Source of the DNA: Candidatus Omnitrophota bacterium
Lineage (GTDB): Bacteria > Omnitrophota > Omnitrophia > Omnitrophales > JAQTRP01
Direction: 5' to 3'
Assembly (NCBI GenBank): GCA_028711765.1
Contig: JAQTRP010000002.1
Coordinates: 1 to 47,601 of the forward strand
Length of the DNA: 47,601 bases
Each line of letters starts with the position of its first letter. Position 1 is the first letter of the stretch. The translations under genes were made by a program, and so were the position numbers. The notes under the pieces were generated by a model, which did not search any database, had not been told where the DNA came from, and worked only from the letters and a program-made list of their open reading frames with translations. This document shows positions 1 to 33,612 of this stretch, piece after piece.

Positions 1-356
1 GTTATGTATATGATGCACTTATTGGAGGGGTCGATATCAAGAGGCGCATTAGCAGGAAGAGTTCCATCGCATTGGGATAAGTAGCCTGCTTTCGTTTTAA
101 GAGGAAGCAGCGATTCAACGCCTGCATTTGCCAAATCCTGCATCGTTTTAGCTTCATCTTCAAACGTTGTTTTGTCTTCGTCTTTCTTCAAAAACTTGAA
201 CGCTGCTACAATACCACTATCTAATTCTATGGTCGCTGTACGGAAATACCACTTTACCTCATCCGGATTTTTCTTTTGCAACATCTCTATTAGTCCATCA
301 GCTGTATAATGTTTGCTGAATTCTAACAGTTCCAATTTGATCTCTTGATTAAGCTT
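1..356 (-). other. Module 25 (truncated by window edge): possible protein-kinase-like N-lobe
   Basis: Follows GASLG at 357-371. KLNQEIKLELLEF...DSGIVAAFKFLKKDEDKTTFEDEAKTMQDLANAG resembles a VAxK lysine strand plus a helix-C Glu. Only about 118 aa are visible. Confidence 0.25.
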
Positions 357-3300
357 CCCAAGCGATGCGCCGCCTTCCGGCTGGTAGCCATATAGACGAG
401 ATAGATACACCATATTGAATCCGGCCGCCTCAAAAGCCTTCGCCAGTCTCGGACTCTTTACTATTTCTACCCATACTCTATTTACTATCCGCCGAACTCG
501 TTCTCTTGTTAAACCAAACTGTAACCCGATTGCATTAAGAGTTTTGCCCTTGAGGCGTTCCGCAAAAATATCTACATTCCTAGCACTCACCATTTTGCGA
601 AGGATACCTTTTAACAAAGACTTCAGCTCTTCTATATCTAACTTGCCTAATGAAAGAGGCTCTTTTCGCCGTGAATCTATTCTTAACACCAAACTTGATT
701 CGTGAACCTCTCTCCGCTTCAACCTTTCATTGTCCGGGACTATAGATATTTGAAGCTGTCTTTTTCCGTTGCTACGTCTCAATAAGCTGAGTCTAATGCT
801 TGTTGAAAGATACGCATGAAATGGTTTTCCTTGTATATATTTCGCGATACATGTCCTAAGCCTATCTTCCCATTTAGACTCATCTAAATTAACCGGCGTA
901 CCGTTTACATGCACCAGGCAAGCGGCCCAATATCTAAACAATCTCTCCGCCAAACCGCGTAACACATAGTAACTGGCGCGATTGCCTTGCTGGGCATCTA
1001 CGGTCAATTTATTCTCCTCTTCGTCTGTCAACCCCTGTTTTAAGATATCATCTATAGTATCCGGCAGACGTTCGTGTCCCTCGTGCTCCCCCAATATAGA
1101 CCTTGCACTTTCCCAATCTTCATAAGTAAGATTAAGGACGGGCGGGTCTACAACCAAATCTTCTATCCCTAAATACCGTTTTAACGCTTTCAATGCGTTA
1201 GCCATGCTGTCGCAACGGAATTTTCTATTTGCCCACGCTAAAATACCTCCTAAACCCTTATTGTTAAACTTGGGCACAGGTTTACTAAAATCAAAAACAA
1301 CTAAAGCGCCCGGCTTTTCCTTCAAGGCCTCGGCAAGCAGTCCTACCATATGCAGTTTCGCTTTCCTTGTAGCCCGTTGCCATATACAGCGCACGACACC
1401 TTTTCCAAGTTTGAATAGGGGCAGTATGTTTTCTTCTGTTATATCTTGCGCTGAACGGTTTTGCCTTTTGTCCGCACCCAACAACCGTCCGGCTTGCCTC
1501 TCTGCCTGCCTGCCGGCAAGGCAGGCTTCCGGCTTCTCTTGACTATTGACTATGGACTCTGGATCATGGACTGCTTCACGGCCCAGTGACGAACCTTGGA
1601 AAGGAAGCTTGCGCTGAGCGGCAAGCTCAAAAGGATTTAAACCGTCTTTGACTAACTCCCGATTCACCCGCATCAATACCGCGGGAAGCAAGACGTGAGA
1701 GCACTCAAGCAGTTCCGCCAATTCGGTGGAACTCAGTTTTATTAATCTCTTTTCATAATTAACGCTGGGAACCGTTTTGTCGCCTAAGTTTTCTAACCGC
1801 CCCATACACGTTTTGACATAGTCCGCATTCACGGATCTTAAAAGCGCCCTGTCATAGTTTTTTCTTTTTTCGGGATCGGTTAATACTTCGCGGGCGCGTG
1901 TTATCCGGACAAACATTTCGCTACTTTCTCCGCCGCGATGGTCCGGATGATACCTCGCTGCCAGTCCTCGATACGCCTTTTTTATTTCTTGCGGGGCAGC
2001 ATCAAATGAAACTCCGAGTGTTTCATAATGACTTCTTCCGGATAAAAATTCGGGTATTCCCGGTATGGTTAGCGCCTTTTCATCCCGCATTTTTGCGAGG
2101 CGACGCAGTACAACCCAAAAACATGACTTTAGCACCATAATATCTATTCCTATCTTCCAGGCAATCTCCGTGCGGAAGGGGAGGCGCCTTCTCGCGGGAT
2201 TCTTTCTAAAAACCGCCAGAACATATTCCACCGCAACATCCACGGCTAACGCGTTAATTATTGGGGCAACCTCTTCCAATAATGGCCTAAAGTTTGAACC
2301 TTCAACGTTAAATATTTTTAATCTCTCGCGAAGTGCTAACCGGCCGATCCCGAGCAGTTTCGCAGCCCTAGACTTATTGCCGGAACACGCGGTGAGCGCC
2401 CACACGGTAAGGACTCTCCTCAGAGTACTTATTGTGATTATCTCCACGTACGGCCATTGTCTTGCAATTTCCAATACGCTGTCCTTGCCTAATCTCATCT
2501 TTATCATCCATTCATTAAGAGCCGATAGGCATATCCCCAAATGGCACGCTGCCTTACGCCTGTTAAATTTACCGTTTTCTGAAGTTTCTTTCAGGGCGTA
2601 TGCTACAAGCTTTCTTGTCCATGCCGCAATGTTGTATGCTTTGAAGTCAGGATCCCTAAAGATATCTTTTCTCTTTTTGCTCGCCGTTGGGGGTGAGCTC
2701 CTAAAAATTGGGCGATCGATATTAAATCCTTCAATGTCTTTTAAATAAAGCGTCCTCGTGCTGATTCCGAGCAGTTTCGCGGCCCTAGCCTTATCGCCGG
2801 AACATGCAGCGAGCGCCCGCCTAACAAGAACTTTTTCCAATGAACTCACCGTAATTATTGTCTGAAGCGGCCATTCTTTCGCTATTTCCTGAATATTGCC
2901 TTTAACTCTCATGCTGCGCATTAATCTATAAATAGTAGTCTTACTCATCCCTAAGCGCAACGCCATCTCTCCTCTGTTTAATTTCCCATCCTTCGAAGCT
3001 AACATAAGGGCGTATGCTACAAGCCTTCTTTTCCAAGTTTTAATTTTGTACGTATCCAGATCCGGAAATCCATCAGTATTTATCCCTAATGACGAGCCGG
3101 TAGTCCGGTTAGCCAGTAAGCTTGTTAGCGTGTTAGCCGGTTGGACAGTTATGGGCCCAACCCGCTCACTGGCGAACTCACTAACCGGCGCACCAACACG
3201 GCCCAGCGACGAGCCGTCCGCGGTGATACGCTTTTCGATTTCTTGATGCATCTTTGCCAGATCTTCGGGCAGGGTAGAATATCTACTGCTACTGCCGGAT

Positions 3301-6300
3301 GGAACTTTTTCTCCTCTAAGAGAATAGTAAACCGCTTCCGCCATTGCCTTAGTAATGCGGGAATCATACCCTTCTTCGTTGAATACGGGAGGCAGGACTA
3401 GGCCCTTTTTCAATTGCTCTTCGGAAACCATAGAGGCTAAAGCGAGGCTGGCTTGGGCAGATACTTCTTCGATATCAATACCGTCCGTTAAAAGTCCTTT
3501 TTCTAAGGCATCCGCTAAGGCGCGGAATACACCGGGAAAGGCATAACAATTATTTATGGTGGTAATTCCGGGAATGCCGAATCTGCCGCAGGCGGCCACC
3601 GATATATTATTGAATTTACCCTCTTTCTTTTGCTTCATAATCTCCCCTATATCAAACTCAGGGTCGGGATTGGCGCAGGCAAAAACAAAAGCGCCGTCCC
3701 TCATCCCCGAAAGAAGCTTTTCCTCTCTCCCCCAAAGAGCCTTCGGCTGAGAAAGCCCTATGAAACCATCCGCGCCACTAAGCGCCCCTTTGAGGTCGCC
3801 GGAGAAGTCTTTGTTATAGTCTAAAAGACCCTTTTTGACAGGGGTTAAATCCCTTCTTCCACTATGAATCACGCCTTTGGAATCAAAAACAATAATATGC
3901 TCGACCCCCAGCCTATGAAGAAGATGAGCGGATGCAACGGCTGACGCACCCGCTCCGTTAATCACAATCTTTGCCTCTTCCAACGGACGGCCGGAAATCT
4001 TCAGCGCATTGATTACCGCCGCGCATATAGTAATAGCGGTGCCGTGCTGATCGTCATGCATAGTAGGTATTTTAAGCTTTTCATTCAGGTGCCTCTCGAT
4101 CTTAAAACATACGGGGCTCGCGATATCTTCAAGCATTATGAGGACGTCCCCATACTCCTTTTTAAGCTTCTCAACCTCTTTTATTACCTTCCTCTCCACG
4201 CCGGCCAAATCTTTATTCTTCCACTCTCGCCGCGTATCAACTAACAAGATATTGGCATCTACATTGCCAAACCATTTAAGCAGCGCTTGTTTGCCTTCCA
4301 TAACCGGGCCCGCGCCCATGAACCCGATATTGCCCAAACCCAAAACAGCTGAACCATCTGTTACAATCCAGAGCTTGTGGCTTGGGTCGTTTTGAATGTG
4401 AACGAATTCCTTGAAATATTCTTCATTTTCCGCGGCCAACTTAGCTATCTCGGCTACTCCGGGGCTATAGATAGTGGCCATTATCTCTGCGGAAGATACC
4501 GGCACCACGCCAAGTTTATCCCATAAACCTCTCAAATATTTATAGGTACTTTTGGGTTGCGGGTTAACCAGCTTACCGGCTGACCGGCTAACCGGCTCAC
4601 CAGACCGCCCCAACGACGCGCCGGCAGTACCGGTTGTAAGTTGTAAGTTATAAGTTTTAAGTTGCTCATTCTGTAATGGTTTACTTACAACTAATAACTT
4701 AGAACTTATAACTGAATCTCCCTCCCCCAGCGACGAACCACCCTCTTTTTTGTCGTGAGGAGTCCTGAGCGAATCCGCCGCAGTTTTGGCGGACGAGTCG
4801 AAGGGCGACGCGCCCGTAGCCCAGTTAGCCGGTGAGCCTGTTAGCGTGTTAGCCGGTTGGACAGTTATGGGCCCAACCCGCTCACTGGCGAACTCACTAA
4901 CCGGCGCACCAACACGGCCCAGCGATGCGCCCTTCGACTGAAGCGCTTTCAGCACCTCACCCGCTTTCTCGCGGACCTTTGCGTCCGGCTCGTAATCAGC
5001 GTTTGCGGAACATTGAACCCAAGGAACAACACCCGCGTCCCTAAGCTCCGCGAGGACTTCGAGAATCGCCATACGCATGGCGGCATTCTGCTCATACACG
5101 GTATTCTGAACGATAGACGTTCCGTCCGGCCCGTAAACATTAGGCACAAGCCTCACGGCAAAACGCGGCGCGAGATCCTGGATAGCTGTGCCGCCCATAA
5201 TCGAGAAAAGCTCGCGGATCCTATCCCTATTTACAGCATCCGTTTCATACTCAGGATTCGCAATCGGCTTTCCGTCCGCTCCGCGCGTAAAGCAACAATT
5301 GGCGTCGTGTTCATACTTAATAAGCTTGCGCGCGATAAGGGCTTTACGGCGATCGTCAACAGATGCCTCCTCATTATGCTTCGCCATAGTTATGAGAGTA
5401 ACTAAAGCTGCCCTCCGGCCTACAAAATCTTCCTCGTTATAAGTGGGGTTTGAAAACAATTTTCCGTCAGGATGTTGCTTCACAACGTTTTGCTCATCGT
5501 ACGAATACTTGAAAAGCATCATATCTGCGAGAAATCTGGCTATTTCAGGCTTATACCACTTCACATTCTGCCTCATGTGGTTAATGGCACTAATCCTAGC
5601 AGACGGATTCTCAAGGTGTTTTATCAATTTCGTACGGTCATTTTGAACAGGAAGTTTGTTATCCTCCGGCTGCTCCGCCCCGCCTGCCCTGAGCGATGTC
5701 GAAGGGTTGGCAGATTTCTCGGGAGTTTTGCCTACGGGGCCCGCCCGATCGCCGAGCGAACGGCCGCCGCCGAGACGCTTTATTAAAATAGACAACGCCT
5801 GATTAAAAAAGTCCTCGATTGAATCGCGGTCGCGCAACTTGCCGGGAGTGATAAGATCCGCGCCCAAGGCCGTCAACTGAGACGCGAGCGATTCCTCGCC
5901 GTTTTCGGTTTGCGTTGAGTTAACAATCACAACCGGCTTTACGGCACAACGTTCTCTGATGAACCTTAAAACAGCCCGCCCGTCAATACGCTCACGACCT
6001 CCGCATCCTTCCTTTCCGAGATCAAGAACTACTATATGGATGCCCGGCGATTTGAATTCGGCGTAAACATCGACATTATTCGAAGCCGAGATAATATTTT
6101 CCTCAGCCACTCCCAAACGTTCCAACACTTCACGCAACGCCTCTGAATGGTTCTCGTCATCTTCGGCAATCAGAATCTTGATCGAAAATTTATTTATCAT
6201 AGCGCCCAAGCTCGAACCCTTAGTTCCATCCTCTTTGCTATCCTTTTTCTCTTCTTCGCGGCGCCTGAGCTCATCTTCAATGGCTTTCCGCGCGTCTTTC

Positions 6301-9300
6301 TTCGACTTGAAACCAAACGAAGACATAAGACTCCTTACCAATTCCTTGAGCCCCTTTCCGAATTTCGGTTTACTTGCCGTATGATCGCCTAGCTCGGAAA
6401 TGGCCTCGTCCATCCAGAATTGCCTCATTCCCTCATCCAAACCGCTACCGGGTGCGCCGGCTGATGCCGCGGCATAGCGGAACATATCGGCGGGAGGGCA
6501 CTGCCTCTTGGACAAGGTCACGATTTGGATGGTCCCTAATTTACTATCTTCCCTGCTAAGGACGGCCGGATCAATTTTTTCGGCGAGGGTTGAGCCGTCC
6601 TCGTACTTGATGCCGTACCAGCCTGAACCTACTTTTGTAATAATGACCATACTGCCGCCGTGGCTCTCGAGCGCATCGCGCATAAGCGAAATACCCGTTC
6701 CCGTGCCGCCCTCGGCAGGCGCGTCTTCAACGGAAACATGTTCGCTAACACCGACGTCGAAGAAATGATCGCGTTTGTATGAACTCATTCCGGCGCCGCT
6801 GCCCTTGAAACTAAGGACGATTTCATCCTTGGTCTCGGCGGCATCAAGCTCCACTCTGCCGCTTGTTCCGCCAAGCCGCCAGATGCAGTCCTCGAGCGCC
6901 TCCCTTGTGGCGCGCCTCAGGTAATTTCTGTTCGCCCACCTAAGGGATATTTCCTTATGGCCTTTAAGAAGAGCATTTTTCTTAATTCCAAAAATCTCAT
7001 CGATTCTCTTGCGGGCAAGCTTGTAAACTTCTTTCCTCGCCAGATTCTTTTGAATCTTAATATTTCCCCAGTCGATATTTTTTATCTCGCGCTCGCCTTT
7101 ATAACCGATCGCAATATTTGAATGGTCGATAGGCGTATACCATCTCCACAATAAAACCCTTCTCGCAAACTCCCGCGCTGCATCAAAGCTTTCGAGAACG
7201 CCGACGGCGTGGGGCTCTAGGGATTTCTCACTATGTCTCTTATGCTCTTCAAAGCGGCGATTCCGATAAGGCTTGATATCCGCCTTAATGAGTTCGTTGG
7301 CGTGGTTGATAATCTGGGCAAACTCGCGGAAGAGGAAGTACATCCTCTGCAGATAGTTCCTCTGGATTTGAGGATCGGTAACGATTCTTTTATTGATTTT
7401 CTTCTCGTCTACTTTCTTCCCGTCTTTCTCCTCGGTCAGCAGTTTGCTCATATTAAGAAGAAACGAAAAATAGCTCTGGCTGAACGCGGGTTTTGCCGTC
7501 GTGAACTTTTTCAACTCCGCGCGGCCGCGCAACACGATGTCTTGGTCTTTTACGCCTTCTTTATTTAACTCCCTAAAGGCTTTTTCGAATTCCGCCATGT
7601 CCGGCTGATAAACCCTGCGGATGCCTTTGTCTATTCCGGAGTCGACCCCATAAAGGTATTCCATAAACCGGTCATAGAGGTCGTGGTATTCCACAACAAT
7701 ATGGCCGAGATCCCGGAAAACGCTGAGTATAAACTGCGCCTCCGCCGCCCTGCGCGCAAGCGACGCCTTCTTCTGTTTGGTCTTCGCCCTCTCGAGGCGC
7801 CCTACAACCTCTATAACGGCCTTCTCGATTTTCCCGCCTTTTGCCTTGGGTTTGCGCACAATCTCTGATAATTTATCCAGCTTAGCCGCCGCGACACACC
7901 TTTCCCTCAAGGCTGTTAGTAAATTGTAACGCGCGTCAATAACGGGTTTCGAGAGCTCGGCCAGCCCGAGGGCGGTCATATTCTTATCGTATTTCCTAAG
8001 CATGAATACCCGCCGCGCGCGGGCTGATTCCGACACTGTCGATCTTATAATGCTGAAAATGGTCTGATATAAAGGCGCGCCAATCCAAGCAATGAAGACG
8101 TTGGCGGCATAATACGGAACCGAAATCTTAAAATTAAACCTTTCGGCCAGTGTTTTCTGCATTTCAGGGATGTAGTAGACTATTCTCTCCCTCTTGTCTT
8201 GGCGCTGATAATATGCCGAAAGTTCCGGATACTGCTTGCCCATTTTCAAGCCTACGGCGCTGACGCACAACGCCTTCGCCAAAAGGGCGAGCAAATAAGG
8301 AGGCGGCGTGAAGGTATAAGCCATCCAGAGGGCGGCGCTTCCTGTGAACACGGCCTTGAGCAAATAGTAAGCGACACTGTAGTAGGCCGCGTTCCAAGTC
8401 CCAAGAAGGACACTCGCTTTCTGGAGACGATTTGAGAATGAGCCGGAATAATGCTGGCCGAATCTATCGGCGATATGCATACACAGCGCGCCGGTCGCGA
8501 AGCTGACTAAAATCCCTTGCTGGCCCGGCACAAAGAGAGCCGCCGCAAACACAGACAGAATGAACGGAATGCGGAACGCGAAGAACGCAACCTCGTTGAG
8601 CCTGAGTTCGTCCGTAATGCCGGTGAGTTTGAAAATGACTTGCTTCGCGCCGAGCGACGAGCCCACCGAAGGCCGGCGGGGAGGCCTGAGCTTGTCGAAG
8701 GACGAGGAGCCGGCGAGCTTTCTCAGGAACTTTGTCATTGTCCTAGGGCTGAAATTTTTGGACGGCCTGTCGTTGTTAAGATGAACCGCGGCTGTTCCGT
8801 AATTACTCAGGATTTCTCCGTTCTTTCCGACATCATCCTTTGTGTGTACCACGTCCGAATCATACGAAATAAGATTGGGCCTTGCCTTATCGAGCAATGC
8901 TTCATCAAGTATTTTAGGTGAAATACAAACGCCCATTCTAAGCAGATAGAAAAGATCGGCCGCGCACGAAGGTGAATCATAACCGTCGAGCGGATATTGA
9001 GCGATAAACTTGTTGTAATTATTATCGTGAACCACATCCGTCCTAAGGCTGCCCGCATAGTTCATCACGGAAACCGCGGAGGCCGCTTCCTTCAACTTTC
9101 CAAGCACATCCTTACCGTATTTTTTCTCATAGGCCGCGAGTAAAGAACTAGCGCTTTCAACAACAAGTATAAGGTCCTTTCCTCTAATCTTTTTCTCCTC
9201 GAAACCGTAACGCCAGAAGCACGCCGGGTTATAACGGCGATCTCTTGCGTTCGCGCTGTAAAAATATGTGTCTAAATGGTCATAAAAAGACACCGCGAGG

Positions 9301-12300
9301 GGCCGGATTCCTGTCACGTCTTCCACCGCCTTTAAAAGCGCCAGCGAAGGATGATGATTTTTGCACGCAAGAAGAGGAATAAGGCCCGCGTCAATGGCCT
9401 TTTTGACATAACCCTTCAAGTACTCGACTTGCTCATTAAAATTCTCAAGACCAAGCAGAACTATGCTATCCGGAATTATGTAATAACCGTCCGGCACCGC
9501 GACTTTGCGCCCGCCAACCTTGACAAAGCGCTCTTCACCTAACGACTTGCCAAAACTGTCATTGCGAGCGGAGTCCCTGCCTGGCCGGCAGGCAGGCGCC
9601 GAAGGCGGACGAAGCGAAGCAATCTCAGAGCCATTGCTTAGAGATTGCCTGCCTGCCGGCAAGGCAGGCTTCGTCGGCCTTATGGCCTCCTCGCAATGAC
9701 GTATCAGCTTTCCTAATGACCTACCTTCTTTAGACTGTGGACTGTGGACTATGGACTGGGCTTCAACGCGGGAATAATCGGGCGGGACAAGCAAACCAAC
9801 ATTTTCGCGCAAATAAGATGAGAAATTAATCACCGCGAGCTTCTTTCTGAGATCGTCCGCGCTTATGTAATCCGCGCTCCAGGGTAACTCGACGATAGTT
9901 GACTCGGGAATCCGGATGTCCGGCAATGCCTGCTTGATTAGTTTTTTCCAGTAGTCGGACTGGAGCTTCTTCGCAGTAGCCGGCGTCTCTACTCTCGCGT
10001 CCTCATCACGTTTCTTTATCGCGGCGAATATGTCATCGCCCTCATAACCGACTTCGGCGCCGTAGCGCTTCTTGTTGCCGCTTGAGCGCTCAAATTTGTA
10101 TATAGGCACGGCATTGCCGTCCTTATCCTTGTCCGTCTTCTCGGCAATGGAATATTCTATCGGAGCGGAACTCTTGAGACTTCTAATCGTGACTAACCTT
10201 ATACTCGGATCTCCGTATTCGCAGGCGTTGATTTCGGGCGCCGCGTCGCCGTAATCGATAGATTCCTTTCTGCCATTAACAACAATGACATTGCCGAGCC
10301 TATCCTTAAAAGTCTTTTTGGCATCGTCCCGCTGAGTTTTCCTTATCATCGCGAGCGAGATGTGCGCCCTGCCCTCTTTTTCGTTTTCAAGGTCACGGCT
10401 TAAGGCGTGCTCACCGACAAAATACCTATCCGCAAGCGGCGTAAGCAGATTATCGACGTTCATATATTGGACATGCTCGACGCCGAGATCCTCAAGCCAC
10501 TTGACGGCCTCGGCCTCTACAAAATTACCCGCCTCATCCGACCAGACCTTGCCCTTTAGGCGTACGTCGGGATTCAAAACATAATCGAACGCGTCACCGT
10601 GTCCCGCTCCGCCGAGGTTGAGGCGGTCTTTTTTCGCTAAGAATGCCTTGCCGTCATTCTTCTCGCCCGGCTTTCTGATTAGGCCCGGTAAACCCTTCTG
10701 GCGAACAAAAATGACCCTGTCCTTAATATCCTGCCATTCCTTCAGGCTCATCAAATATTCGATTGTCTCTTTCTCTGTCTGCTCACTCAACATAAAGACA
10801 AAAGGATACATTTTCTTATGGCCGTAAGTCTGTGCCGCCGCTTGCAGCTTATGAATCAAGGCTTGATAAAGACTCTCTCCGCTCAACGGCGTTGCCGGGA
10901 ACATACCTTTGGGATGATCGTACTTAAGCCCTGAGCCGGTGCCGCCCGCGACTACGATGCCCGCGAACTTCGCTTTACCTTCATCCGCGCCCCAACGTAA
11001 AACTTCTTCGCCTTTAGCCGCCGCTTCAGGCCTTCTTTCCAAAATAGGTTTTGAAGGAATAAAACCTTTCGTATCAATCGAAAGTTTCTCTTTCCTTACG
11101 ACGAGCTTCTCGTAGAGCGCTGTTACTTCGGCCCAATCAACACCCTCGATATCGCCGAGGAGGTTCCCTCTTTCGGCATCGGTAAGCCCATCCCAGCCCG
11201 CGAGCAAATGCTCCTGCCCAAATTCCTTTAATTTCGCAAGCGCCGCTTGATAGCGCACCTCGAGAGATGAGCCGGAGGACGACCAGCCGCTTAAGTGAGA
11301 GTGATTTGCTATGTTAAAACCGCTCCCGCTAAAGGCCGCTATTAATCTTGGATTCTCTGCTATTTGTCTCTTTATTTCATTTGTTATCTGTCGAATTCGC
11401 TCCCTTGTTAAACTAAATTGTTTTCCTATTTCCTTAAGTGTTTTACCGCTAAGGCGTTCCGCGAAGATTTTTACATCCCTATCTTCTATCCCACTACCAA
11501 GAACACTCTTTAATAAAGACATCAAATCTTCTATCTCCAAGTCGTTTAAAAAAAGTGCCTTTTCGTCCCTTGAACGGCGGTTTAGCCCCAAGCCTAGTTC
11601 GTCAATTTCTCTCCGTTTAAGCGGTTCCTCATTTCTATCACCGGTAATTATAGATATTTGACGCTTCACTTTTCTATTAAAATATGCCCACAGGGCAAGT
11701 CCAATGCTTTTTGAAAGATACGCATGAAATGGCTTTCCTTGTTTATACCTTGTAACACATGTCTTAAGCCTTTCTTCCCAGGAGAATTCTTCAAATTTAT
11801 CACATGATATGCCGACCTTTTTCGCCGTATAATAGGCCCGATACCTAAATAGTCTTTCTGCTAAACTGCGTAGGACATAATAACTTGCAAGGTTGCCAAA
11901 CTGGGCATCTTCGGCTAACTCGTTCATCTCCTTTTCCGCTAATTTCTGGTTTAAGATACTATCTATTACATCCGGCAACTGTTCACATCCTTTGTGCCTA
12001 TACAAGATAGCCTTTGTCCTTCCCCAGTCTTCGTTCTTAAACCAGTCTTCGTTCTTAAAATTAAGAACGGGCTTAACAACAACCAAGTCCTTTATGCCCA
12101 AATGCTGTTTAAGCGCCTTCGATCCCTCGGTCAAGCTATTGCAGTGAAATTTCGCTACAGCCCAGTGTAAAAGACCTATTAACGACCTACCATTAAATTC
12201 GGGTGTGGATTTGTGAAAATCGAGAGGGATCAAAGCGCCCGGATCTTTCCTGACTGCCTTAGCGAGCAAATTTACTATATACAGCTTCGCCTTTTTTGTT

Positions 12301-21300: not shown

Positions 21301-24300
21301 AAAAGAAGTAATTCGGTATCGAAAGCGGGCGATTTGTCTTTTACGAAAGGAAGGATCCCATAAAGCGCTTCCCTCTTGAATAGTTTAAATCCCCGCTGGG
21401 TGTCTTGAACGCTCCGGAGTTCCGGCAGGATAATCCGCACGCAAAAGCTGTAAATTTTACTCGATAGAATCCCCTGAAGCGACATACCCTCACGACTAGC
21501 ACCAGCCGTCCAGCGGGAACCAATCGCGACATCCGCCTTCTTACGATAAAGCGGCCTGAGCAATAGGCCGATCTCGCGGAGGTCGACTGAGGTATCGACA
21601 TCGGTATAGCCGATATAGTCGGCTTTATTCTCTAACAACGCCGCCCCTAGGCCAAAGTGCACGGCCCCGCCTTTTTTGCCGCCCAAGGCTTTCTTCTCTT
21701 CGGGGGTAACCACCTCGACTGAAAGCTGCTCAGAAAAAAGGCGTTCTCCTTTTTCCCCGTACTCTCTCAGGATTTCCCGCCAAAGTTTCTCTATGTATTT
21801 AGCCGAAGCGGCGTCCGGACTACCATCGTCAACCGCGATCAGTTTCCACTTAAAATTAGGGTTCGCTTTAGTCAATTCCTGAAGCTGGGCCACCTTAAGC
21901 CTTAACGCGTCTTCGCCCTCCGGATTATCGGCGCTCCGCGGTTTAAGCCTCGCTTCTTCGTTATACATAGGCATAACCAACGCCACCGTGACCGGCTCCT
22001 TTATGGTTTTGATGAAGCCGAGCGACCGTCGTATTTTATCCGTCTCCGCCGCGCTCCTGCCCTCACCAAGCGACGAGCCGTTAAAATCCGTCGTCCGTGA
22101 CTCGTCGTCCGTCGTCCGCATTCTGTCTTTTGTTATAAATTGATCACTGACGTCTGACGACTGACGCCTGCCCTCCGTAGCCTTGGCGAAGGAGGGACTG
22201 GCGACTGTTTTCCCGCCCAGCGATGCGCCCGTAGGGCTAAGCGAAGAGCTCCAAACAGATCTCGTTGTCAAATCGAGCGCATTGCGGTACATTACGTAGC
22301 ATTCTTCGATAGACGGGCTGTGCGTCCCGAATATATTAGAAAGGCCGTTGGAAACGGAAACCTCTATGATCGATTCAAGGTCTTTGGCTTGGGCCACCTT
22401 CCTATTCGACGGTTTGTCGGAGAAACTACCAAAATCATCCACGAACAGGACCACTATGTCGTCCTTACGTCTTACCAACTTAAAATTCCCAAGGTGCATA
22501 TCGGAGGTGTCGGGAGCCTCGCCGTAGTACCCAAGGAAATGGAATATCGCGATGATGCCCAACACCTGCCGGGCTATTGCCTCGCCGAGTTTCCGCGCAT
22601 CGCCTCCATAGCAAGCGTATTCTTTCGCGATCTTTTCCAACTGATCCGGACCTATATCTTCGAGGCGCGAACCGTCCTCGTATTCGAAGATGGCTATATT
22701 GGCGGATTCTTCCAGGTTGCTCATATCGAAGGCCGTCGTCTTTCCGTAGATTTCGAGCTCGTTATACGGCAGTGAGTAAAAAGCCACGGGGCGGACAAGC
22801 GACGCATTGGGAAAGCGCTCCAATATTTGGTTTGGTATCTCGAAATCATTGGGGCTTACTATGTGTCTCGCGTACTCATCGTGGTCTTCCTCGCCGGGAA
22901 TCTTTATTTCGAGCGCGAAACTCACGCGTTTGGTTTCGTCCATCCTGAATATTACATGTCTTCTGAATGAATTCGGAGACGGCGTTACATATATCCCGCC
23001 GCCCAGATGGAAATACGTTCCTTCTCTGATGCAATCCGCCAGAACGCCGCCGCACTCTCTGTATATCTCTCTTAACGTCGTCAGTATGCAGAGAAGTTTT
23101 CTGACATTCTCCGGGTTAAAGAGAAGGTTGTACATCGCAGGGTCGCCTGCCATGAGCCTTTCTTTAGCGCCGTCGAATGCGCGTATACCGGCCGGCTCAC
23201 AATCCGGTTTTGCTTCAAGATCGGGCATGCCTTCCGTCGCAAGAAGAGGAAGGATATCCATCCTCTTCGCCATCCTCCGCCAAACGAGAATGGCGGTGGC
23301 ATTATCTCTATCAAACAGCTCTTCTCTGAATAATTTTATTTCGCCGGGCAACAATTGGAGCTTGGGATTCCTTTCGCAAAATATGTCAAGGATGTACAGC
23401 ATAGAAGCTTTTGGCACGAGGTTTTTAGAAAATAGCAAACGCATTAAGTCCAGATCGGACTGGACAGGCTCACGTTTGACTCTTGGGTCGCTAAAATAGG
23501 AAGATACAACATCAAGCAACCTCAGAATCTGCTCTATGTCGACCTCGTCGCGTAAATGGTCGAAGAGTACTTCGTAAAGAGACGGCTTGTTACTAATGGC
23601 CTTCGCAGCAGCGAGGCAGAGATTTTTGCGAACCCGATAACTAAAAATTCCTTTCCTGTATAAAATCAAGAGATCCGCAAAACCTTTATCGGATAATTGA
23701 ATGTCCGGATTTTCATGTATGGCGTGCCATAGGTCCTGACTAACAACACTGGGAGCCTCTTCTGCTACCCCGGCGTCTCTTCTCTTTAAAAAATCAAACA
23801 TACCCCTAAGCGTCATGCTGTTAAAGTACATGCCTCCTGCTTCTTCCTCTGTCCGGCCCAGCGAGGCGCCGCTCCCGAGTTGTGCGTATCGGCTAACATA
23901 TTTGAAGAATCTTTTACGATTATCATAATGCCGAAATTCGGACCCGCCTTCTTTCGCATACCATCTTGCGAGTATTTGGGTGATGCTCTCCGTTTTAATG
24001 TCTCCCAATATCGCTTCAGGAGGCGGATTGGTCATTAATGCGGCATGGTCGCACGTAAAAAGCTTTCCATCGGCTCCGACAAACAGAAAGATTCTACCGG
24101 CTGCACGATGCCCTGTCGTTACATCAAAAGGATTCAATGTTCTCGCAAATATCCCTTCCTCTTTATCAAAGTCTTTGGCGCCGCCCTGCGCGATAAGATG
24201 ATTCACGTACACTTCGTCTGTCGAGGGATTCAAATGGTACCGTTCGAAAATATGCTTGCGCTCTTCGCCTCCATGGCCAGGTGCGGAAGCCAGCCGAACG

Positions 24301-27300
24301 TTGTACCCGATAGCCAGCCGCTTCTTCCGAGCAACATAATCCTGAACGCCACGAACAATCTTTTTTAAATCTACTCCCTTTTCCGATTCTTCCTTCTCGT
24401 GCCACTTATCTACCGAGATTACCAACGTAACATTATCGGGCAGTTTGTCCAAGAAACCATCAAGTTTGCTTTGGTCTTCGGGAAAACAATAAGCGTTGGT
24501 GTCTATGTGAACTTTTTTAACGTGCCGCGAGGCAAAGTTAATTAAGTCATAAAATTCCGGTACAGGTTCTCGTGTCTCAAAATCTCTCTTATAGTAGTAA
24601 AAGGGCTCTCCTCCCGTAAAATATATGCTGGGATAACCGTCCATCTCCTCAAGCACCCTTTTTAGAATTTCAAGTGGTATATCCGCTTCGGGTGCAGCAC
24701 GCCTAACATCCTCGATGCAACACATGGGGCAATTGAGCGGACATTTGTGCGTAATCATTATGTTGATATTTGGGTCAAAAAGCGGAGATAAGGCTTTAAT
24801 AAGGCTTGCTACATTTACCGCTTTTTCAGCCACAACCTTGGCGGCAGGCTTGCCCCTTCCAACCAATGCTTTTGCAACGGTCTCATAGGAGCAACCGTCG
24901 CTCTTACTGCATAACAAATCGATGAGCGCCTTTGTCGAACGTGGATCATCAATACCGCATAACGCCCTAGCGGCAAACAAGCATTTAACATAATCGCCGT
25001 TTTCCAAAAGGTCGATGAGCGGTTCTGCGGCGGAAGGGTCCCCGATTTCACCTAGAGCGATGGCCGCACTCACCGTTTTATTCGATGGTTCGCCTCTCAG
25101 CGCTTGAATCAGGGGCCGAACGGCAGCACGTTTAAATTCAACGATAGCATCAATAAAACAGGAATGATCGCTTGAACGACGATACTCGGGCTCCTTCAAG
25201 TTCTCTTCATAGTAATTGTCACTTTCCAGACAAGCAATAAGAGGTCCTATCGCAGAAGGATCGCGGATCTCGCCAAGAATGTTAGCCGCGTTAGCTTGCA
25301 CATTTTTCGAGTTATTGTTTAGCTCTTTGATTAGAACCGGCACAGAGGAAGGACCGATCTCCTTAAAGACATCGACTAAGTTATCAACCTTTTGAAACCG
25401 CCCGTAACTACTACACCAACCACTATGTTTAGACGTCCTATAACAATCCCACTCATAATAAGGGGCTTTCTCCAGACAACGCAACGCGTAAGGAAGCGCC
25501 CTCTCTCTGCCTATCCTCGCTAAAGACAATACGGTCCTTTCACGTGGAAATTCTCGATCCATCCGCTCTAATCCTCCATCGGCTATATACTCAAAAGCGG
25601 GCTCATAACGCAAACTTTCCAAGGCCTCAAGGACTGCTAAAACCACATTGCGATCCCCGCCGCTTTTCAACGCCTTGAAAAGCGGCCCTCCTGCCGAGAG
25701 ATCGCCGATCTTGCCTAAAGTTTCTGCGGCGCGCTCTCGCAGTAAAGGATTAAACCAGCCTCGATAACCCCTCAGGCATTTCGAAAGAAACCGAACGGCA
25801 GGCTTTTCCATTTCTACCAAAGCGCGTGAGGCAGCATCGGCAATGTGTGAATCTTCGCTCTTTAACGCCTCGACCAACTCTGAAAACGAACATTCGGACA
25901 TCTTGGAAGCCAGCTCATCAGCTAAAGCAGCTGCCGCTCCCGCGCTATTTTCCTCCCCCAGCGACGAGCCGGTAGTCCGGTTAGCCGGTAAGCCTGTGAG
26001 CGAGTCAGCCAGTGCACCGTTAGGTCCTGAGATTGCCACGGCTGCTTCTGGCAGCCTCGCAATGACACCGCTAACTATGAACTGTGAACTATGAACTATG
26101 AACTGCGGCTCCGCCGCACGGCCCAGCGACGCGCCGGTAGTCCGGTTAGCCGGTAAGCCTGTGAACGAGTCAGCCAGTGCACCGTTAGGCCCTGAGATTG
26201 CCACGGCTGCTTCTGGCAGCCTCGCAATGACACCGCTAACTATGAACTGTGAACTATGAACTATGAACTGCGGCTCCGCCGCACGGCCCAGCGATGCGCC
26301 GCTTCCGCCTACGGCGGGCTCTTCACTAAAAAGGCGGGCGAGGAGAGTGTGAGAGTCGGGAACGCATGCCTTGCAAAAATGATTGGCCAACCGTTCGAAC
26401 AAACTGCCGTAGCCTTGAACCTCGGCAAGCCTTTTTAATACCGCTGAAATATTGAGTCTAACGCTCGTAGTCTGTAAACTTTTGCATGTGTCTTCGAACC
26501 CTTTCTCGAAAGCCGACGCGATTTCTAATCTTGTCCCCTCAGTACCCCTTTCCCACGATTTCATCTTGCGCAGCCTGTCAAGATAGCGCCTCGAAAATCC
26601 GTGAATAAAATCAACCAGCCAGGATTTATAACTAAACTGGTTGGATGTATCGTAGAGCGTATCGATAATGTCGAGGCCGTTGAGATTAAAAAAGATAACC
26701 TTGCCCGTTTTCGCGTCAACAAATACCGTTTCCGGTTTGGACTCAAGAATTGAAGCATTGGGAAGGAACCAACCGCTTAGACGGGCAAGCCTTCCCAAAT
26801 CGCGCGCAAAGTTAAGCGCGGCTTCACCGGAAAGTTCGCGATCCAAGCGTTCGTCACTAAGGGCATACGCATCGAGCTTTTCGCGAACGACAAAACGGCC
26901 GCGGCGGGCAATATCGCAGACCGGAAGACCAAGCTGCTTTAATATCCGGCTGGTAAGCGTGCGCTTTCTTTCTTCGCGTCCTGTGTAAAAGCTTTGCTTT
27001 TCTATCGCTATAGGCAGCGTTTTTCCATCTTCGAAAACTAGATCATAAAAATATGAAATCGGCATCTTGTCTTCGGAGTCTACGAGCTTCTCGAAACTAT
27101 CGCCGAGATAATCTTTTATAAGCTTCGCTAATTTGTAATGTTGAAAGTAATCGCGGCTTAAGACCCAGCTTAGGCGGGAAAGGAGGCGTTTCGCTTTGCG
27201 GGAGCGGGAGTGAAATAAATTATCAACCGGCATAGCAATCTTCTTTGTAAACCAATGCCGAATGCACCTTGAGCGATAAGCCCAGCTATCGGGAAACCAC

Positions 27301-30300
27301 CGCTCGAGCCCCACGCTGCCTCTTTCATCTCCGAGGCTGCGCCCTGAGCCTGTCGAAGGGCTTGCCCCGTCGATAGATTTTCCGAAGGTTTTATCTACGG
27401 GGCTTGCCTCACCAGCGGGCTTTACATAAACCGAGTAACCAGATATGCCTTCGCTAATTTTCGTAAGTCTTGGAAACTCCCGATTGCCCAACAAAACAAA
27501 CTTAGCGCCTACCTTAAGCTCGCGGAGAAGTTTATCCTCAAGTTTTGTGGCAAAATCCTCTGCCTGTCCCTTAGGGGCAGCGAAATAGGAGAATATAATA
27601 TCGTAATCTCCGTAATCGACCATCTCAAGAAAATCTCCGTGTTGAAAATCAATCTTTTTGGTATCTACGACGCCGTGAATCATATCGTGATTTAGTTGCG
27701 CCCATTTACTTGCGTTAAAAAGCTCATCATCTAATTCCCGACCCGTTACATGACCCGCCCACAAGGAGAAAATCATAGCAGTTTGACCATTGCCATGGCC
27801 TAAATCTAACACCCGCGTATTTCCATCAATCTCAAGTTCATCTTTAATATCAAGAATGCTTCTTATGCGCGACATTTCGAATTTGCTGCCATTCACTGTT
27901 CTTTTACTAAGACTATAACCGGCCTTAGCATACGAACCTCTAAAGAATTGCCTGATGGCTTCGACTTTCCTCTCTTCTTCTGTGCCCCCTGCCGGTGTAA
28001 GCAATGAGCAATACTTTTTAACAAAATTTTCGATCATTCCGTTATCCATGCTTTCATTAAAACGAGGAATACTTTTTCGGGCCTCGATTATCACCTCTAT
28101 TCTGCCCAGCAAAGCCTTGTTACATTCTAAGGCCTTGATTAATATCTTTTGTTTCTCCTCAACGGAGGATAGTCTCTCTACGGCATCCCTTAGCTGCAGG
28201 CGCAAGAGTTCAAATTTGTCCAGCCAAGCGTCTAATCCCTTAAACCATTCTCTAAATGTTTTGCTGGTGTACTTAATATCATAAAATTGACTGCAAAGCC
28301 CCCTGAGGGCTCTTGCCAGATCACGAAGGTTTATCTTCAACGCTTCATCTTTCAGTTCCGTCCTTAATCCTTCATTAACAACCCTTTTGTCGAAAAACAC
28401 ACACCAAAATATCTTGTCCATTGCATCGCTAGCCACGTTCATTTTCTCAACAATACCGTTTACTTCACAAATATCATTCGCTAAAAGTTCTACGGCAGCT
28501 TCCGGATCAAACAAACTCGTCTCGCCGAGCGACGAGCCTGAGGGTTTGAGTTTGGCTAATTTGCCCACTGTATCGACTCCGCTAAAATCGGCAAGCCCTT
28601 TAAGCAAATCGGTGCCTTCGACTCGAAGCGGGGCACCTTCATAAATACCGGAATCTATCAACGTGCCTGCCAAAGTAACAAGATCATCAAGCACCTTTCG
28701 CTTCAAGTCGGGTGCGCTCTGCTCATTCAACGAGAGAGGAAGGGCAAGCACAAGTCCCCTTTCCTTCGGCTCTGACGAGTCGTCAAGTCTCCCACGGATG
28801 AAATCAGGATGCCTGTTCTTATATCGAGGCACATACATTGTTTTATGATCATCCCACATAAACTTTCCGGTATTTCGCCCTTCAGCCACAGCCACGCAGA
28901 ATCTATCCTCGACCGGCAGAACAACAAAATCGGCCCTATGCCATTTGCTACTCCTCGCGACGCCGTATATTTCCAAAATAAGTTCTCTGCCAGACCATGG
29001 CGTCATACTCGCACGATATCCGAAATCGCCGGACGAGCACTGCGCAGCACTTCCGCTTCCTGAAGCAAGCTTGCTTATATCAAATATGCGCCTGAGGGGC
29101 TCCACAGTCGGTGCCTTGCTTATTTCAGAAAGGGCTCTTCTCCTAATTCGCTTCTCAGCCGGTTGCTCATTTTGGGGGATTTTTTCTTTAATCACTTTAA
29201 CCGATTCAGCCGGTAAAGCGCCGGCGGCCACATCCTGCGGTTTGTCTTCTCCGGTTCTTGGCAACAATTTCTTGGGGGTAAGCGTTTTCTTCCCGCCGAT
29301 AATTTCACGCGTAACAGTGTCTGTTCTGCCGGCCTGAACCGGCTTGGAAGGGTCGGCTGTGTTCGATTTGTCTTCGCCGGTTTGAATGCCTAGTTTCTGT
29401 CCGAGTCTCGTCTCAAGATCCTCGAAAGTCCTGGAAAGATCTGAGATGCATTTCTCCTTTGCTCCTCTATCCTCAGTCATAGCCAAAGGAGCCAACCTTC
29501 TAAGAGTTGGGATAAGCTGTGCTCTTATTCCCTCTACAATAGCGAGCGCTTTTCTACGATCTTCTTCCCCTCCAGAATCACATTTACACGAGCACTCATC
29601 AGCGATACCGATAAGCGCATCCCTTAGGTGGCGATAATCCCACATCGTGTCTTCCGATTTACCCAAGCTAGATCCCATTACGCCGGCGCCGACAGAGGCA
29701 AGCCGCGAAAGCTCCGCGTTTATCACAATATCCACCGGCAGGCCGTCGCAGACATGTGCCTCGGGCGACATAGTCTCTTTCGCTACGCTAAAGTCGTTTT
29801 GGATGCGCTTGGCGTAAAGCTTATCTCCTAATTCAAAGTTATCCGCGGCGGGAGAAATGACGAGGTAGGATATATTCCCTTCTTTCAGGACGCTCTTAAC
29901 TGCTTCGGTGTGAAAACCGCCGGTGAGAAGGAATGACTGGGGATTGTCTTTTAGGAAAGCGATGAAATTCCGCGCTATGACCTTATCGCGCATTCCGGCG
30001 AAGCGATAAAAGCGAAGGGCGGATTTAAGATGACGGTGTAAGGCGGCCCCGTTGGAAATATGCACACGTCGCAACATATTGGTTTTAATATCGCCAATTT
30101 GTTTCTGCGAAAACGATTTCTTTGCATATGCTGCTTGATTTCCAACGGGGTGAAACGTGGCCTCGCGATATACCTTTAAATCCTTGCGGGTGGCTTCGCA
30201 CCTTAGGATGCGCCGTATCACCCGGAAAGATTTAAGCTCATCGATAAACTGTTTCTCGTCCTCGGTCTTCGCGAGGCGGGATTCTATTTGTGAAGCGAGC

Positions 30301-31470: not shown

Positions 31471-31499
31471 ATTATAACACACAAATTACGGGAAGGCAA
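31471..31499 (-). promoter_or_regulatory. Candidate sigma-70 promoter for the giant ORF (extended -10)
   Basis: The minus strand reads TTGCCT (31499-31494), a 17-nt spacer ending in TGT, then TATAAT (31476-31471), about 110 nt upstream of the ATG. No clear Shine-Dalgarno precedes the ATG. Sequence pattern only. Confidence 0.3.
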
Positions 31500-32180: not shown

Positions 32181-32198
32181 GATTGCACCCTCCACCTA

Positions 32199-32260
32199 TG
32201 TAGGGCGCGTTTCCCAAACGCGCCGCCGCGCGTTGGGCCGTTCGGGGAACGGCCCCTACA
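32199..32260 (-). other. Nested GC-rich hairpins between pyrH and frr
   Basis: Outer stem tgtaggg / ccctaca. Inner hairpin gcgcgttt-ccc-aaacgcgc (32205-32223). Inner hairpin gggccgttc-ggg-gaacggccc (32235-32255). Confidence 0.6.
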
Positions 32261-32275
32261 ATCTGTTAACGTAAT

Positions 32276-33608
<1,333 letters not shown>

Positions 33609-33612
<4 letters not shown>

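Follow-up and report, generated by a model that had tools for sequence, protein, structure and literature searches.

A giant Omnitrophota gene with a recurrent inter-module pentapeptide: a candidate cellular polyprotein

Giant open reading frames (ORFs) are a hallmark of Omnitrophota and of other ultra-small symbionts, and each product may work as one chain or be cut. Giant ORFs of Omnitrophota that combine heterogeneous enzymes with signal peptides and transmembrane (TM) helices have already been described (Seymour 2023, PMC10066038; West-Roberts 2023, 10.1101/2023.11.21.568195). Those named 'Archaeovorins' are rich in HEAT repeats, glycosyltransferases and methyltransferases, their glycolytic enzyme domains are predicted to be extracellular, post-translational cleavage is suspected, and the missing knowledge of cleavage points has blocked computational dissection of the giants (West-Roberts et al. 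2023, bioRxiv 10.1101/2023.11.21.568195). The survey of Nielsen and Lui (bioRxiv 10.64898/2026.06.07.730766) comprises 916 proteins of at least 10,000 amino acids (10 kAA), 94% of them with a signal peptide or TM helices, and includes 'multi-enzyme metabolic clusters' with methyltransferase, HATPase, receiver, radical SAM and HEAT domains. Here we analyze a gene of this kind at one end of contig JAQTRP010000002.1 (assembly GCA_028711765.1, Candidatus Omnitrophota bacterium), whose product carries 33 copies of the pentapeptide G-[SARK]-S-L-G between its recognized modules and begins with a conserved, signal-peptide-bearing head module. As far as searched, both are new; neither is mentioned in the West-Roberts 2023 or the Nielsen and Lui 2026 preprint, and no relevant use of GSSLG turned up in the literature searched.

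The window, that is, the whole stretch of DNA analyzed, is the entire 47,601-bp contig; positions below refer to it, and all features of the giant gene lie on its minus strand. From 31418 to 3, where the gene is cut by the contig end, 10,472 codons follow one another without a stop. The first ATG is at 31361, which leaves at least 31,359 nt of open frame (3..31361) for a protein of at least 10,453 aa; the 3' end of the gene and the C-terminus of its product are lost. At this length the gene exceeds the 20 kb by which single-ORF giants have been defined (Seymour 2023), and for the sense of 'giant' that starts above 90 kb (West-Roberts 2023) its length is a lower bound, since the contig ends inside the gene. 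It resembles the Archaeovorin-type genes (Kizina 2022, as cited; Seymour 2023; West-Roberts 2023) in its ORF of more than 20 kb and its provisional Omnitrophota affiliation, in having HEAT, glycosyltransferase, methyltransferase and S-adenosylmethionine (SAM)-dependent modules amid long unannotated stretches, and in combining a predicted N-terminal signal and predicted internal TM helices with cytoplasm-type enzymes predicted outside, for which cleavage is suspected. It differs in that no SecA_DEAD or C39/S8 peptidase domain was found in its available part, nor any glycoside hydrolase or NUDIX domain, in its few candidate TM helices, in neighbors that are housekeeping genes and not those of a type II secretion system or pilus, and in the G-x-S-L-G punctuation and conserved head, which are not mentioned for the Archaeovorins.

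The giant likewise resembles Class 1 of Nielsen and Lui, being at least 10 kAA long and tiled by many distinct Pfam families with none dominating. Its content fits their Modules 1 and 2 (methyltransferase, HATPase_c, receiver, radical SAM and HEAT), and by heuristics it falls in their topology class of proteins that carry a signal peptide as well as TM helices (SP+TM). It adds malic enzyme, UAP1-type pyrophosphorylase, J-domain and sigma region-4 units, and their study is one of architecture and topology statistics, without unit boundaries, linker motifs or a shared N-terminal module. A heterogeneous multi-enzyme giant with a localization puzzle is already known in Omnitrophota, and the premise of an initial annotation of this window, that giant bacterial proteins are usually adhesins, RTX/Ig-repeat proteins or assembly lines of nonribosomal peptide synthetases (NRPS) and polyketide synthases (PKS), is out of date now that multi-enzyme giants of Omnitrophota have been described.

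The punctuation motif and the units between its copies

The pentapeptide G-[SARK]-S-L-G occurs in 33 in-frame copies of 15 nt each, against 0.12 expected from residue shuffles, with S at its variable position in 16 copies, A in seven, and R and K in five each. Read from the N-terminus, the copies lie at 29661-29675, 28524-28538, 27330-27344, 26286-26300, 26121-26135, 25956-25970, 23856-23870, 22215-22229, 22065-22079, 21147-21161, 20436-20450, 19809-19823, 19704-19718, 18603-18617, 17478-17492, 16635-16649, 15741-15755, 15729-15743, 15234-15248, 13119-13133, 13020-13034, 9711-9725, 9537-9551, 8649-8663, 6204-6218, 5751-5765, 4917-4931, 4725-4739, 4608-4622, 3201-3215, 3084-3098, 1581-1595 and 357-371. 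An unbiased gapped 5-mer scan of the protein also places G.SLG at the top, with 32 spaced copies against at most six in shuffles. Five one-residue relaxations of the motif yield 0-2 copies each, which is the chance level, and there are therefore no decayed copies. The fixed serine of the motif is encoded by TCG (23), TCA (7) and AGC (3), the leucine by five codons and each glycine by four, and within the window the DNA consensus GGC TCG TCG CTG GGS is confined to the giant gene, where it reads in frame on the coding strand. Because the codons are synonymously diverse and the DNA motif is confined to this gene and to its frame, selection is, as judged from the codons, acting on the motif at the peptide level. 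The motif is at chance level in 359 other proteins that were fetched, and 40 other large ORFs that begin with a head do not have it.

All 33 sites lie outside the envelopes of recognized domains and TM helices (P about 4e-6); these envelopes make up 31.5% of the chain, and ~68% of it is without annotation. Over the 24 flanking residues the sites exceed every one of 2,000 random site sets in hydrophilicity, and S, T, Q and P are over-represented there. With a median spacing of 288 aa the sites delimit 34 segments, among which are nine short spacers of 33-64 aa. The first segment, made up of signal peptide and head (aa 1-562), is 562 aa long and similar in size to free-standing heads of 495-569 aa. 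Others hold a methyltransferase-like module (398 aa), HEAT repeats with radical SAM/SPASM (700 aa), a GT2 glycosyltransferase (306 aa), a CheA-like ATPase (237 aa), a CheD-like fold (209 aa), a receiver (segment 26, 151 aa), a malic enzyme (469 aa), two HTH_8 domains with a J domain (501 aa), and unit B, which contains a sigma region-4 domain (408 aa). A variant site, GSSLE at aa 6697, divides the other sigma region-4 unit, unit A, from a pyrophosphorylase, and the region-4 helix-turn-helix (HTH) domains of both units lie at their C-terminal ends, as they do in free sigma factors. The unit that begins with the second of two hydrophobic clusters runs on into an ATPase, in the manner of a membrane sensor kinase, and the next unit is the receiver.

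Other identities for the motif were considered and rejected. As the G-x-S-x-G nucleophile elbow of a serine hydrolase it has no preceding hydrophobic strand, lies in hydrophilic linkers and is accompanied by no hydrolase family match. The likeness of GSSLGE to the GHSLGE of the acyltransferase (AT) motif GHSLG is local only, the linkers are hydrophilic, and there is no AT match. A phosphopantetheine attachment site finds no carrier-domain context, and a generic DNA repeat is at odds with the absence of the motif outside the giant gene and with its being always in frame.

Internal duplications were found by 150-aa chunks, pairwise BLAST and Tandem Repeats Finder; chunking was needed because a whole-protein self-BLAST culls off-diagonal high-scoring segment pairs as enveloped by the self match, and repeats are missed. 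The units at aa 4624-4904 and 4905-5202 are 45-50% identical over ~270 aa, unit A (aa 6110-6696) and unit B (aa 9923-10330) are 50% identical over 396 aa (BLASTP, E 3e-118), and the two HTH_8 units are paralogues of 45% identity. The duplicated units start and stop at punctuation sites. We note also a tandem DNA repeat at 25957-26301 (165-nt period, 2.1 copies, 97% identical), which corresponds to two 55-aa spacers bounded by G-x-S-L-G and, by its sequence, looks like a recent duplication, and another at 12223-12935 (315-nt period, 2.3 copies, 84%), which corresponds to three 105-aa repeats that open unit A. The spacers at aa 8811-8874 and 9383-9421 (nt 4740-4931 and 3099-3215) flank the malic unit and have in common a sequence of 73% identity (G.SLGRVGAPVSEFASERVGPITVQPANTLT…). 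Some junctions share more than the pentapeptide, ANRTTG standing before three motif sites (aa 1743, 1798 and 9422).

The exchange of modules between giant proteins is illustrated by the malic unit, whose nearest relatives in an exhaustive HMMER search are embedded in other large proteins. These are P0210 (4,428 aa, with 68% identity to the malic unit), P0211 (4,780 aa, 55%), P0212 (2,777 aa, 51%), P0213 (1,725 aa, 53%) and P0219 (5,496 aa, 40%); free-standing malic enzymes of ~380-400 aa are ~40-44% identical and align end to end inside the unit. P0210 also contains CheR, several methyltransferases, GNAT, HAD and HATPase, P0211 contains PPDK_N and HTH_3, and P0212 a Glu/Leu dehydrogenase domain and HEAT repeats, while P0222 is a large multi-enzyme protein with CoaE and isochorismatase. 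The homology of P0210-P0213 to the giant is the malic unit, from aa 8899-8923 to aa 9375-9400 and so from site to site, and beyond it only the methyltransferase module is matched, in P0211 and in a different order. Another recurring peptide, ADHRPKTIDQRPS(S/A)SG / (A)DHRPKTIDQRPS, flanks the malic unit of P0210 and is present there in seven copies (aa 43-3925), always between Pfam domains; the malic unit of P0212 has (T)LSLFAPLLAFPDA on its flanks, present in five copies (aa 1016-2325). Most of the other large ORFs examined carry no such motif, and the punctuation peptides are therefore lineage-specific. On these sequence comparisons the units behave as exchangeable, duplicable cassettes.

Leader, head module and topology

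The chain opens with a predicted Sec-type signal peptide, MAKRSMVLKIISLVVCIAFTTTNIAWS/AP (31284..31361), in which an apolar core of 13 aa is combined with three basic residues and the small-residue site A-W-S; both this call and those of TM helices are heuristic, being made by hydropathy, sequence inspection and charge counts. The initial annotation had likened the N-terminus to a Sec signal peptide or anchor, and the leader features, together with their conservation throughout the head family, favor the signal peptide. In 68 of 75 members of the head family a hydrophobic core stands ahead of the first conserved motif. Among the leaders of 65 members the median core is 15 aa and only four members reach 20 aa; K/R residues average 2.9 before the core and 1.0 after it, a bias that holds in 57 of the 65, and acidic residues occur after the core and none before. 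Because of this short core and the charge bias of a cleavable Sec signal peptide, the N-terminus is predicted to lie inside and the downstream chain outside.

Hydrophobic helices within the chain had likewise been placed correctly. Cluster 1 (18687..18863, aa 4167-4225), probably two TM helices by Kyte-Doolittle hydropathy, ends 24 aa before a punctuation site, and cluster 2 (8043-8588, aa 7592-7773), with four to five TM helices, starts 25 aa after one. A hydropathy scan gives ~7 candidate internal TM helices in the 10,453 aa. The paradox to which the initial annotation drew attention, that a chain of cytoplasm-type modules stands behind a secretory leader, is real, and the same puzzle has already been raised in the literature on Omnitrophota giants.

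Behind the leader lies the conserved head module (29772..31184, aa ~60-530), with the motifs IQDxH, LEG, GxE, R and GGFHT and no Pfam match. A protein search with aa 1-1200 retrieved 80 proteins of 660-2,050 aa, all of which match aa 1-530 only, and do so by their own N-termini; the named sources are Omnitrophota, Elusimicrobiota/Endomicrobia, Auribacterota, FCPU426 and Desulfobulbaceae. Their C-terminal cargo is unrelated, with histidine phosphatase, iPGM, Maf, HD, methyltransferase, radical SAM, metallophosphoesterase, protein kinase and SecA_DEAD among it (the last in P0072). Residues Q97, D98, H100, Q106, E128, G129, G179, E181, Y452, R458, G481-T485 and P504 are invariant in the head alignment. 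An AlphaFold2 model of the head (predicted local distance difference test score, pLDDT, 75) has an alpha/beta core with conserved residues at the strand ends, where the invariant D98, H100, E128, E181, R458 and H484 are predicted to lie, and a helical insert of ~290 aa. Its confidence is low around aa 525-600, and the first punctuation site is in this post-head linker.

The order H...E...R...GxH on an alpha/beta core, borne in the head by IQDxH, LEG, RD/N and GGFHT, is a likeness to the Tiki/TraB/ChaN/erythromycin-esterase superfamily, from which the head differs in the helical insert that dominates its model. Matches to that superfamily are without significance (PF04187 for one member at E 0.049; EreC at Foldseek rank 8, E 0.59), nothing significant was found by Foldseek against the Protein Data Bank (PDB), and a profile run against PDB sequences matched none; kinship to the superfamily is a lead only.

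A pattern scan of JGI metagenomes with [VI][IV]xIQDLHC identified 279 relatives, of which 80 loci (L082-L161) were examined; a metagenome scan with aa 1-1200 found no close relative of the giant. The ORF ends within the locus in 34 of the 80, with 14 encoding a head only (495-569 aa) and 18 encoding 1,909-3,737 aa, and it runs off the end in 46, of which 14 exceed 3,800 aa, a ceiling set by the 10-kb flank. Head-only genes usually adjoin a large downstream ORF that has its own similar leader, at a gap of -1 to ~350 nt. These downstream ORFs are 600-2,605 aa long (L083, 1560-9377; L092, 11490-14774; L127/L128, L111, L086 and L091), and the leaders at the split loci resemble that of the giant, as in IIKIITLTLIQSFLLLDFAWCG versus IISLVVCIAFTTTNIAWSA; by such comparisons the leader sequence appears conserved beyond generic hydrophobicity. 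None of the cargo of the examined head loci is shared with the giant; most of it is unannotated, with sporadic cytoplasm-type domains (PGK, GDE_C, HATPase_c_2 and RamC_N) and a weak SecA_DEAD match at L151. One head-bearing ORF, at L122, is closed by at least 11 tandem 31-aa repeats (15955-17144, ORF aa 3240-3635; …EFV.YL.S.GITDG.HISQII.S.K.L..VK…).

Processing of the chain and the alternatives

On the reading that we prefer, and hold with nearly as much belief as doubt, the giant is a polyprotein that is processed at its G-x-S-L-G sites. One promoter and one start codon would then give rise to a chain of at least 24 protein-sized units, among them the head, the methyltransferase, HEAT/radical-SAM, GT2, CheA-like ATPase, CheD-like, membrane kinase-like and receiver units, the UDP-GlcNAc pyrophosphorylase, malic enzyme, HTH regulators and J protein, and about a dozen of unknown fold. 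Hydrophilic linkers would join these units, with the invariant pentapeptides as recognition sites for processing. The first unit (aa 1-562) would become an exported protein of the same size as the free-standing heads, the enzyme and regulator units would remain in the cytoplasm, and the two units with hydrophobic clusters would insert independently into the membrane. Processing at the sites would thereby remove the topology paradox. One of the two solutions proposed in the initial annotation was that the chain is cut into pieces, and this gains new, indirect support because the 33 sites lie between recognized modules and the pieces are sized like free-standing proteins; cleavage itself we infer. 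The giant shares with the viral polyproteins of picorna-, poty-, corona- and flaviviruses a single ORF, many protein-sized units, a border peptide and interspersed membrane units, and differs from them in being cellular and chromosomal, in that its cleavage is a proposal, in that no cognate protease was found, and in a motif unlike viral protease specificities.

Several observations weigh against processing. Neither a protease domain nor a classic protease motif was found in the 10,453 aa, of which ~68% is unannotated and from which the C-terminus is missing, or in the 16 kb of flanking genes; HExxH, GDSGG and GTSxA are all lacking. We know of no protease specificity that the motif would fit, and most large head-bearing ORFs have no such punctuation at all. 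At the sites the codons TCG and CTG are used more often than in the gene background, which also fits a common descent of the junctions by duplication. The S/T/P/Q-rich linkers with their fixed serine might just as well be hinges of an intact extracellular chain or places where it is glycosylated; GT2 and UDP-GlcNAc pyrophosphorylase modules are part of the chain. The separate leaders on the cargo ORFs of split relatives suggest, from their sequences, that cargo is exportable. Finally, the signal peptide would start translocation long before translation ends, and processing at the first site would have to be fast.

Some of these points lend themselves to a different picture, which has been put forward for the giants of Omnitrophota and which we think unlikely here, in which the giant is exported as a single chain, is re-anchored by its TM clusters and functions whole, either on the cell surface or inside a host or prey cell. 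G-x-S-L-G would then be a hinge, an O-glycosylation site or another modification site in the linkers, and the NTP-, SAM- and NAD-dependent modules would act after delivery to another cytoplasm, or just bind. In its favor, the family members have the Sec-type leader in common, the organism is an Omnitrophota-affiliated diderm, and such proteins have been assigned in the literature to the SP+TM class and tied to episymbiosis or predation; the composition of the linkers, the GT2 and pyrophosphorylase modules and the leaders of split-locus cargo ORFs are also as expected, as are weak matches to the XopAK and SidJ-related effector families. Polymorphic cargo behind a constant head is found in polymorphic effectors, and the MARTX and polymorphic toxins share with the giant a constant N-terminal part before exchangeable, cytoplasmic-acting cargo, which in MARTX is freed by autoprocessing. 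However, the giant lacks the RTX repeats, cysteine protease domain, type I signal and neighboring secretion genes of those toxins, and its cargo is metabolic or regulatory rather than toxic. Its radical SAM, malic enzyme, pyrophosphorylase, ATPase, J-domain and DNA-binding modules would have no periplasmic substrates or partners, the 16-kb neighborhood is one of housekeeping genes without secretion, pilus or translocation functions, only ~7 candidate TM helices are available to 10,453 aa, and a hinge does not need four invariant residues without decayed copies. The other solution of the initial annotation, a single chain tethered at the inner face of the membrane as a covalent metabolic and regulatory hub of the cytoplasm, is improbable. 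It would suit the recognized modules, which are all of cytoplasmic types with intact catalytic motifs, and Nielsen and Lui consider it for giants that have TM helices only; it is disfavored by the short leader core (13 aa, against a family median of 15) and by the K/R bias among the 65 members, which in 57 puts the following chain outside, and it leaves the punctuation motif unexplained. The weak head relatives ChaN and Tiki are, moreover, mostly extracytoplasmic.

We also give little credence to the motif being a historical or nucleic-acid-level feature, whether a copied junction, a recombination scar, a cassette-shuffling site or an mRNA processing site. The consensus GGC TCG TCG CTG GGS, with TCG and CTG far above the gene background, might be taken to favor such an origin, as might the junctions that duplicated units bring along, the longer shared repeats (ANRTTG.SLG; SLGRVGAPVSEFASE) and the shuffling of modules among giant proteins. 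Against this, the amino acids are invariant while their codons differ (AGC versus TCN, TTR versus CTN), variants are at chance level, and the motif has been kept by paralogous units that have diverged to ~50% identity; no start codon or ribosome-binding site follows the sites, and mRNA processing would leave the downstream units untranslated. That the ORF is an artefact, produced by chimeric assembly or by sequencing errors that fused genes, or is a decaying pseudogene, is scarcely credible. The contig is metagenome-assembled and truncates the ORF; nevertheless, 10,472 codons run without a stop, a purine is at codon position 1 in 61-66% of codons in each 1,000-codon block, GC1 exceeds GC2, and codon usage correlates with that of ten neighboring genes at r = 0.84 (0.05 in a shifted frame). 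The catalytic motifs are intact, G-x-S-L-G is always in frame, and comparable ORFs are frequent in the phylum Omnitrophota.

With a good deal more doubt than the processing of this one chain, the idea may be extended to the proposal that some bacterial giant genes are cellular polyproteins. They would have cleavage codes of their own lineage (G-x-S-L-G here, ADHRPKTIDQRPS in P0210 and LSLFAPLLAFPDA in P0212), a dedicated processing enzyme and motif-bounded exchange of cassettes, with the head as a constant first product in Omnitrophota, Elusimicrobiota and Auribacterota. If this is true, the 'giant proteins' of ultra-small episymbionts are largely a strategy of gene organization and not megadalton machines. 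Confirmed processing would provide a cellular counterpart to viral polyproteins and dissolve the paradox of signal peptide and cytoplasmic modules; should the chain stay whole, the motif would still point out functional linkers, which may be modification sites, and delimit the evolutionary cassettes. The 33 sites predict 34 pieces for separate modeling, with exact peptide termini to seek in metaproteomes, and lineage-specific, over-represented inter-domain peptides offer a simple screen for the published proteins of at least 10 kAA, which number in the thousands. The head module is a handle for finding and classifying giant genes over several candidate phyla.

Modules of the chain and their genomic setting

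The modules were identified by Pfam scans on overlapping 990-aa chunks and by PDB sequence searches. After the head, the first is a class I SAM methyltransferase-like module (27381..27956, aa 1136-1327), matched by four Pfam methyltransferase families at E 0.015-0.13; it has VLDLGHGNG for the SAM-binding VLDLGxGxG and is 37% identical to the P0211 module (E 1.5e-16). One motif-bounded 700-aa unit (23922..25934) contains both HEAT repeats (aa ~1810-2182; HEAT_2 5e-28, with AlphaRep matches) and radical SAM/SPASM (aa 2197-2480; Radical_SAM 7.5e-10 over aa 2202-2342), in which C2207xxxCxxC and GGEP are intact and the SPASM extension is weak (E 0.01). The GT2 module (21327..21986, aa 3126-3345; Glycos_transf_2 1.6e-6 over aa 3129-3333, with a weak Dol-P-Man synthase match) has PMYNEE for PxYNE, DDGS, DVD for DxD, and GFKLF. 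It is followed at 19824..21020 by an ATP-binding module of the CheA/histidine-kinase type (HATPase_c 1e-11, aa 3448-3590, with CheA P4 matches and with N, G1 and G2 boxes present) and then by the CheD-like unit (segment 12, aa 3638-3846, 209 aa), which three CheD models match over nearly their full length at E 0.0014-0.014. A weak XopAK match (E 0.033), far under the curated cut-off, overlaps this CheD-like unit (19824-20450). A homologue search with aa 3601-4800 found none, and the two tandem paralogous units at 15756..17492 (aa 4624-4904 and 4905-5202), each of which begins at a punctuation site, are of unknown function.

Unit A (11274..13034, aa 6110-6696) ends in an HTH of the sigma-70 region-4 type (aa 6609-6680; Sigma70_r4 2e-5, with RpoD region 4 matches), and next to it lies a UDP-GlcNAc pyrophosphorylase module of the eukaryotic, UAP1/AGX1-like type (10404..11255, aa 6703-6986; UDPGP 4e-6; 1vm8 1.6e-15), in which the nucleotide loop GGTGSGL...PKG and the NVDN motif are present. 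The unit with hydrophobic cluster 2 (6621..8588) contains the second HATPase_c (aa 8146-8247, 4e-7), which is partly degenerate, and the receiver (5859..6176, aa 8396-8501; Response_reg 6e-4, below the Pfam cut-off) retains the acidic pair/pocket and the phospho-acceptor Asp. A complete malic enzyme of the prokaryotic type (3312..4541, aa 8941-9350; 5cee 2.6e-56) has all of the motifs YSPGV, GLGNIG...EGK, LEDI, HDDQHGTA, GAGASA and ANPDPE. Two Fis-type HTH_8 domains (aa ~9440-9690; 4.6e-18) share a unit (1833..3044) with a J domain (aa 9775-9843; DnaJ 1.8e-19) whose HPD is intact at aa 9805. The last complete unit is unit B (372..1595, aa 9923-10330), the paralogue of unit A, whose region-4 HTH (Sigma70_r4 7e-4, aa 10240-10320) ends 11 aa before a punctuation site; an AlphaFold2 model of it from a two-sequence alignment was discarded at pLDDT 40. 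At the truncated C-terminus (3-371) there is a weak match to a SidJ-related pseudokinase (E 0.0036), far under the curated cut-off.

The giant thus carries at least 12 distinct Pfam families, each in one or two copies and none dominant, and most domain calls of the initial annotation, which had described a heterogeneous and mostly metabolic or regulatory inventory, are supported by these searches. This holds for the radical SAM module with HEAT repeats, the GT2 module, the two GHKL ATPases, the pyrophosphorylase, the malic enzyme, the Fis-type HTHs and the J domain; the methyltransferase, receiver and CheD-like calls are weak but plausible at the E values given above. What had been called two sigma-70-like modules contain the region-4 HTHs, and no region 2 was detected in units A and B, the rest of each being without a match. 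The 'several kinase-like folds' could not be recovered, as the giant has no HRD motif and no Pkinase match, and only the SidJ-related pseudokinase match comes near. As the initial annotation had stated, there is no adhesin repeat and no ketosynthase, AT, condensation or adenylation domain; Pfam found no carrier domain either, so that an NRPS/PKS line does not come into question, and no Ig-like, cadherin or RTX repeats, cysteine protease domain or type I secretion signal were found, the only tandem repeats being the two 55-aa spacers and the three 105-aa units. For the divergent SecA_DEAD that most Archaeovorin-type giants have, and for a C39 or S8 peptidase at the N-terminus, the 10,453 aa gave no match, although E values up to 5 were admitted where the chain is unannotated; the missing C-terminus might contain one. 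The objection that the modules might be degenerate pseudodomains fails, because profile searches support the calls and the catalytic motifs are intact in most modules, the second HATPase_c excepted in part.

A promoter-like site on the minus strand at 31471..31499 (TTGCCT, a 17-nt spacer, TATAAT and a TG extension; 10/12 in a consensus scan, and a pattern match only) lies ~110 nt upstream of the giant start codon, inside the 246-nt spacer between frr and the giant gene. The gene order toward the giant is bamA, skp, an lpxC-fabZ fusion, lpxA, lpxI, a hybrid histidine kinase, lpxB with a GFO-type oxidoreductase, an MsbA-like ABC exporter, and rpsB-tsf-pyrH-frr. This neighborhood is housekeeping core chromosome of a diderm, and the order bamA-skp-lpx...rpsB-tsf-pyrH-frr resembles the envelope and translation cluster of E. 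coli. The 16 kb flanking the giant contain no secretion, pilus, translocation or mobile-element genes, no Rfam family or tRNA was found in the window, and in none of 80 other genomes examined does a giant ORF stand beside this cluster. Among the best 90 RpsB relatives, seven of the eight that are named are Candidatus Omnitrophica/Omnitrophota and the eighth is 'bacterium', at identities of only 54-63%, and two Omnitrophota metagenome-assembled genomes are among the top three in a four-gene rpsB-frr comparison; by these RpsB and four-gene comparisons the lineage appears divergent, and its placement in Omnitrophota is provisional. An identical RpsB is present in the reads SRR22315508, and for the RRF protein no exact sequence was found on record. 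Within the flanking genes (31608-47584), lpxC and fabZ are fused as one 441-aa ORF and lpxI stands in place of lpxH; at 38842-41655 the cluster is interrupted by a hybrid sensor kinase of 937 aa (sCache-HAMP-PAS-HisKA-HATPase-REC).

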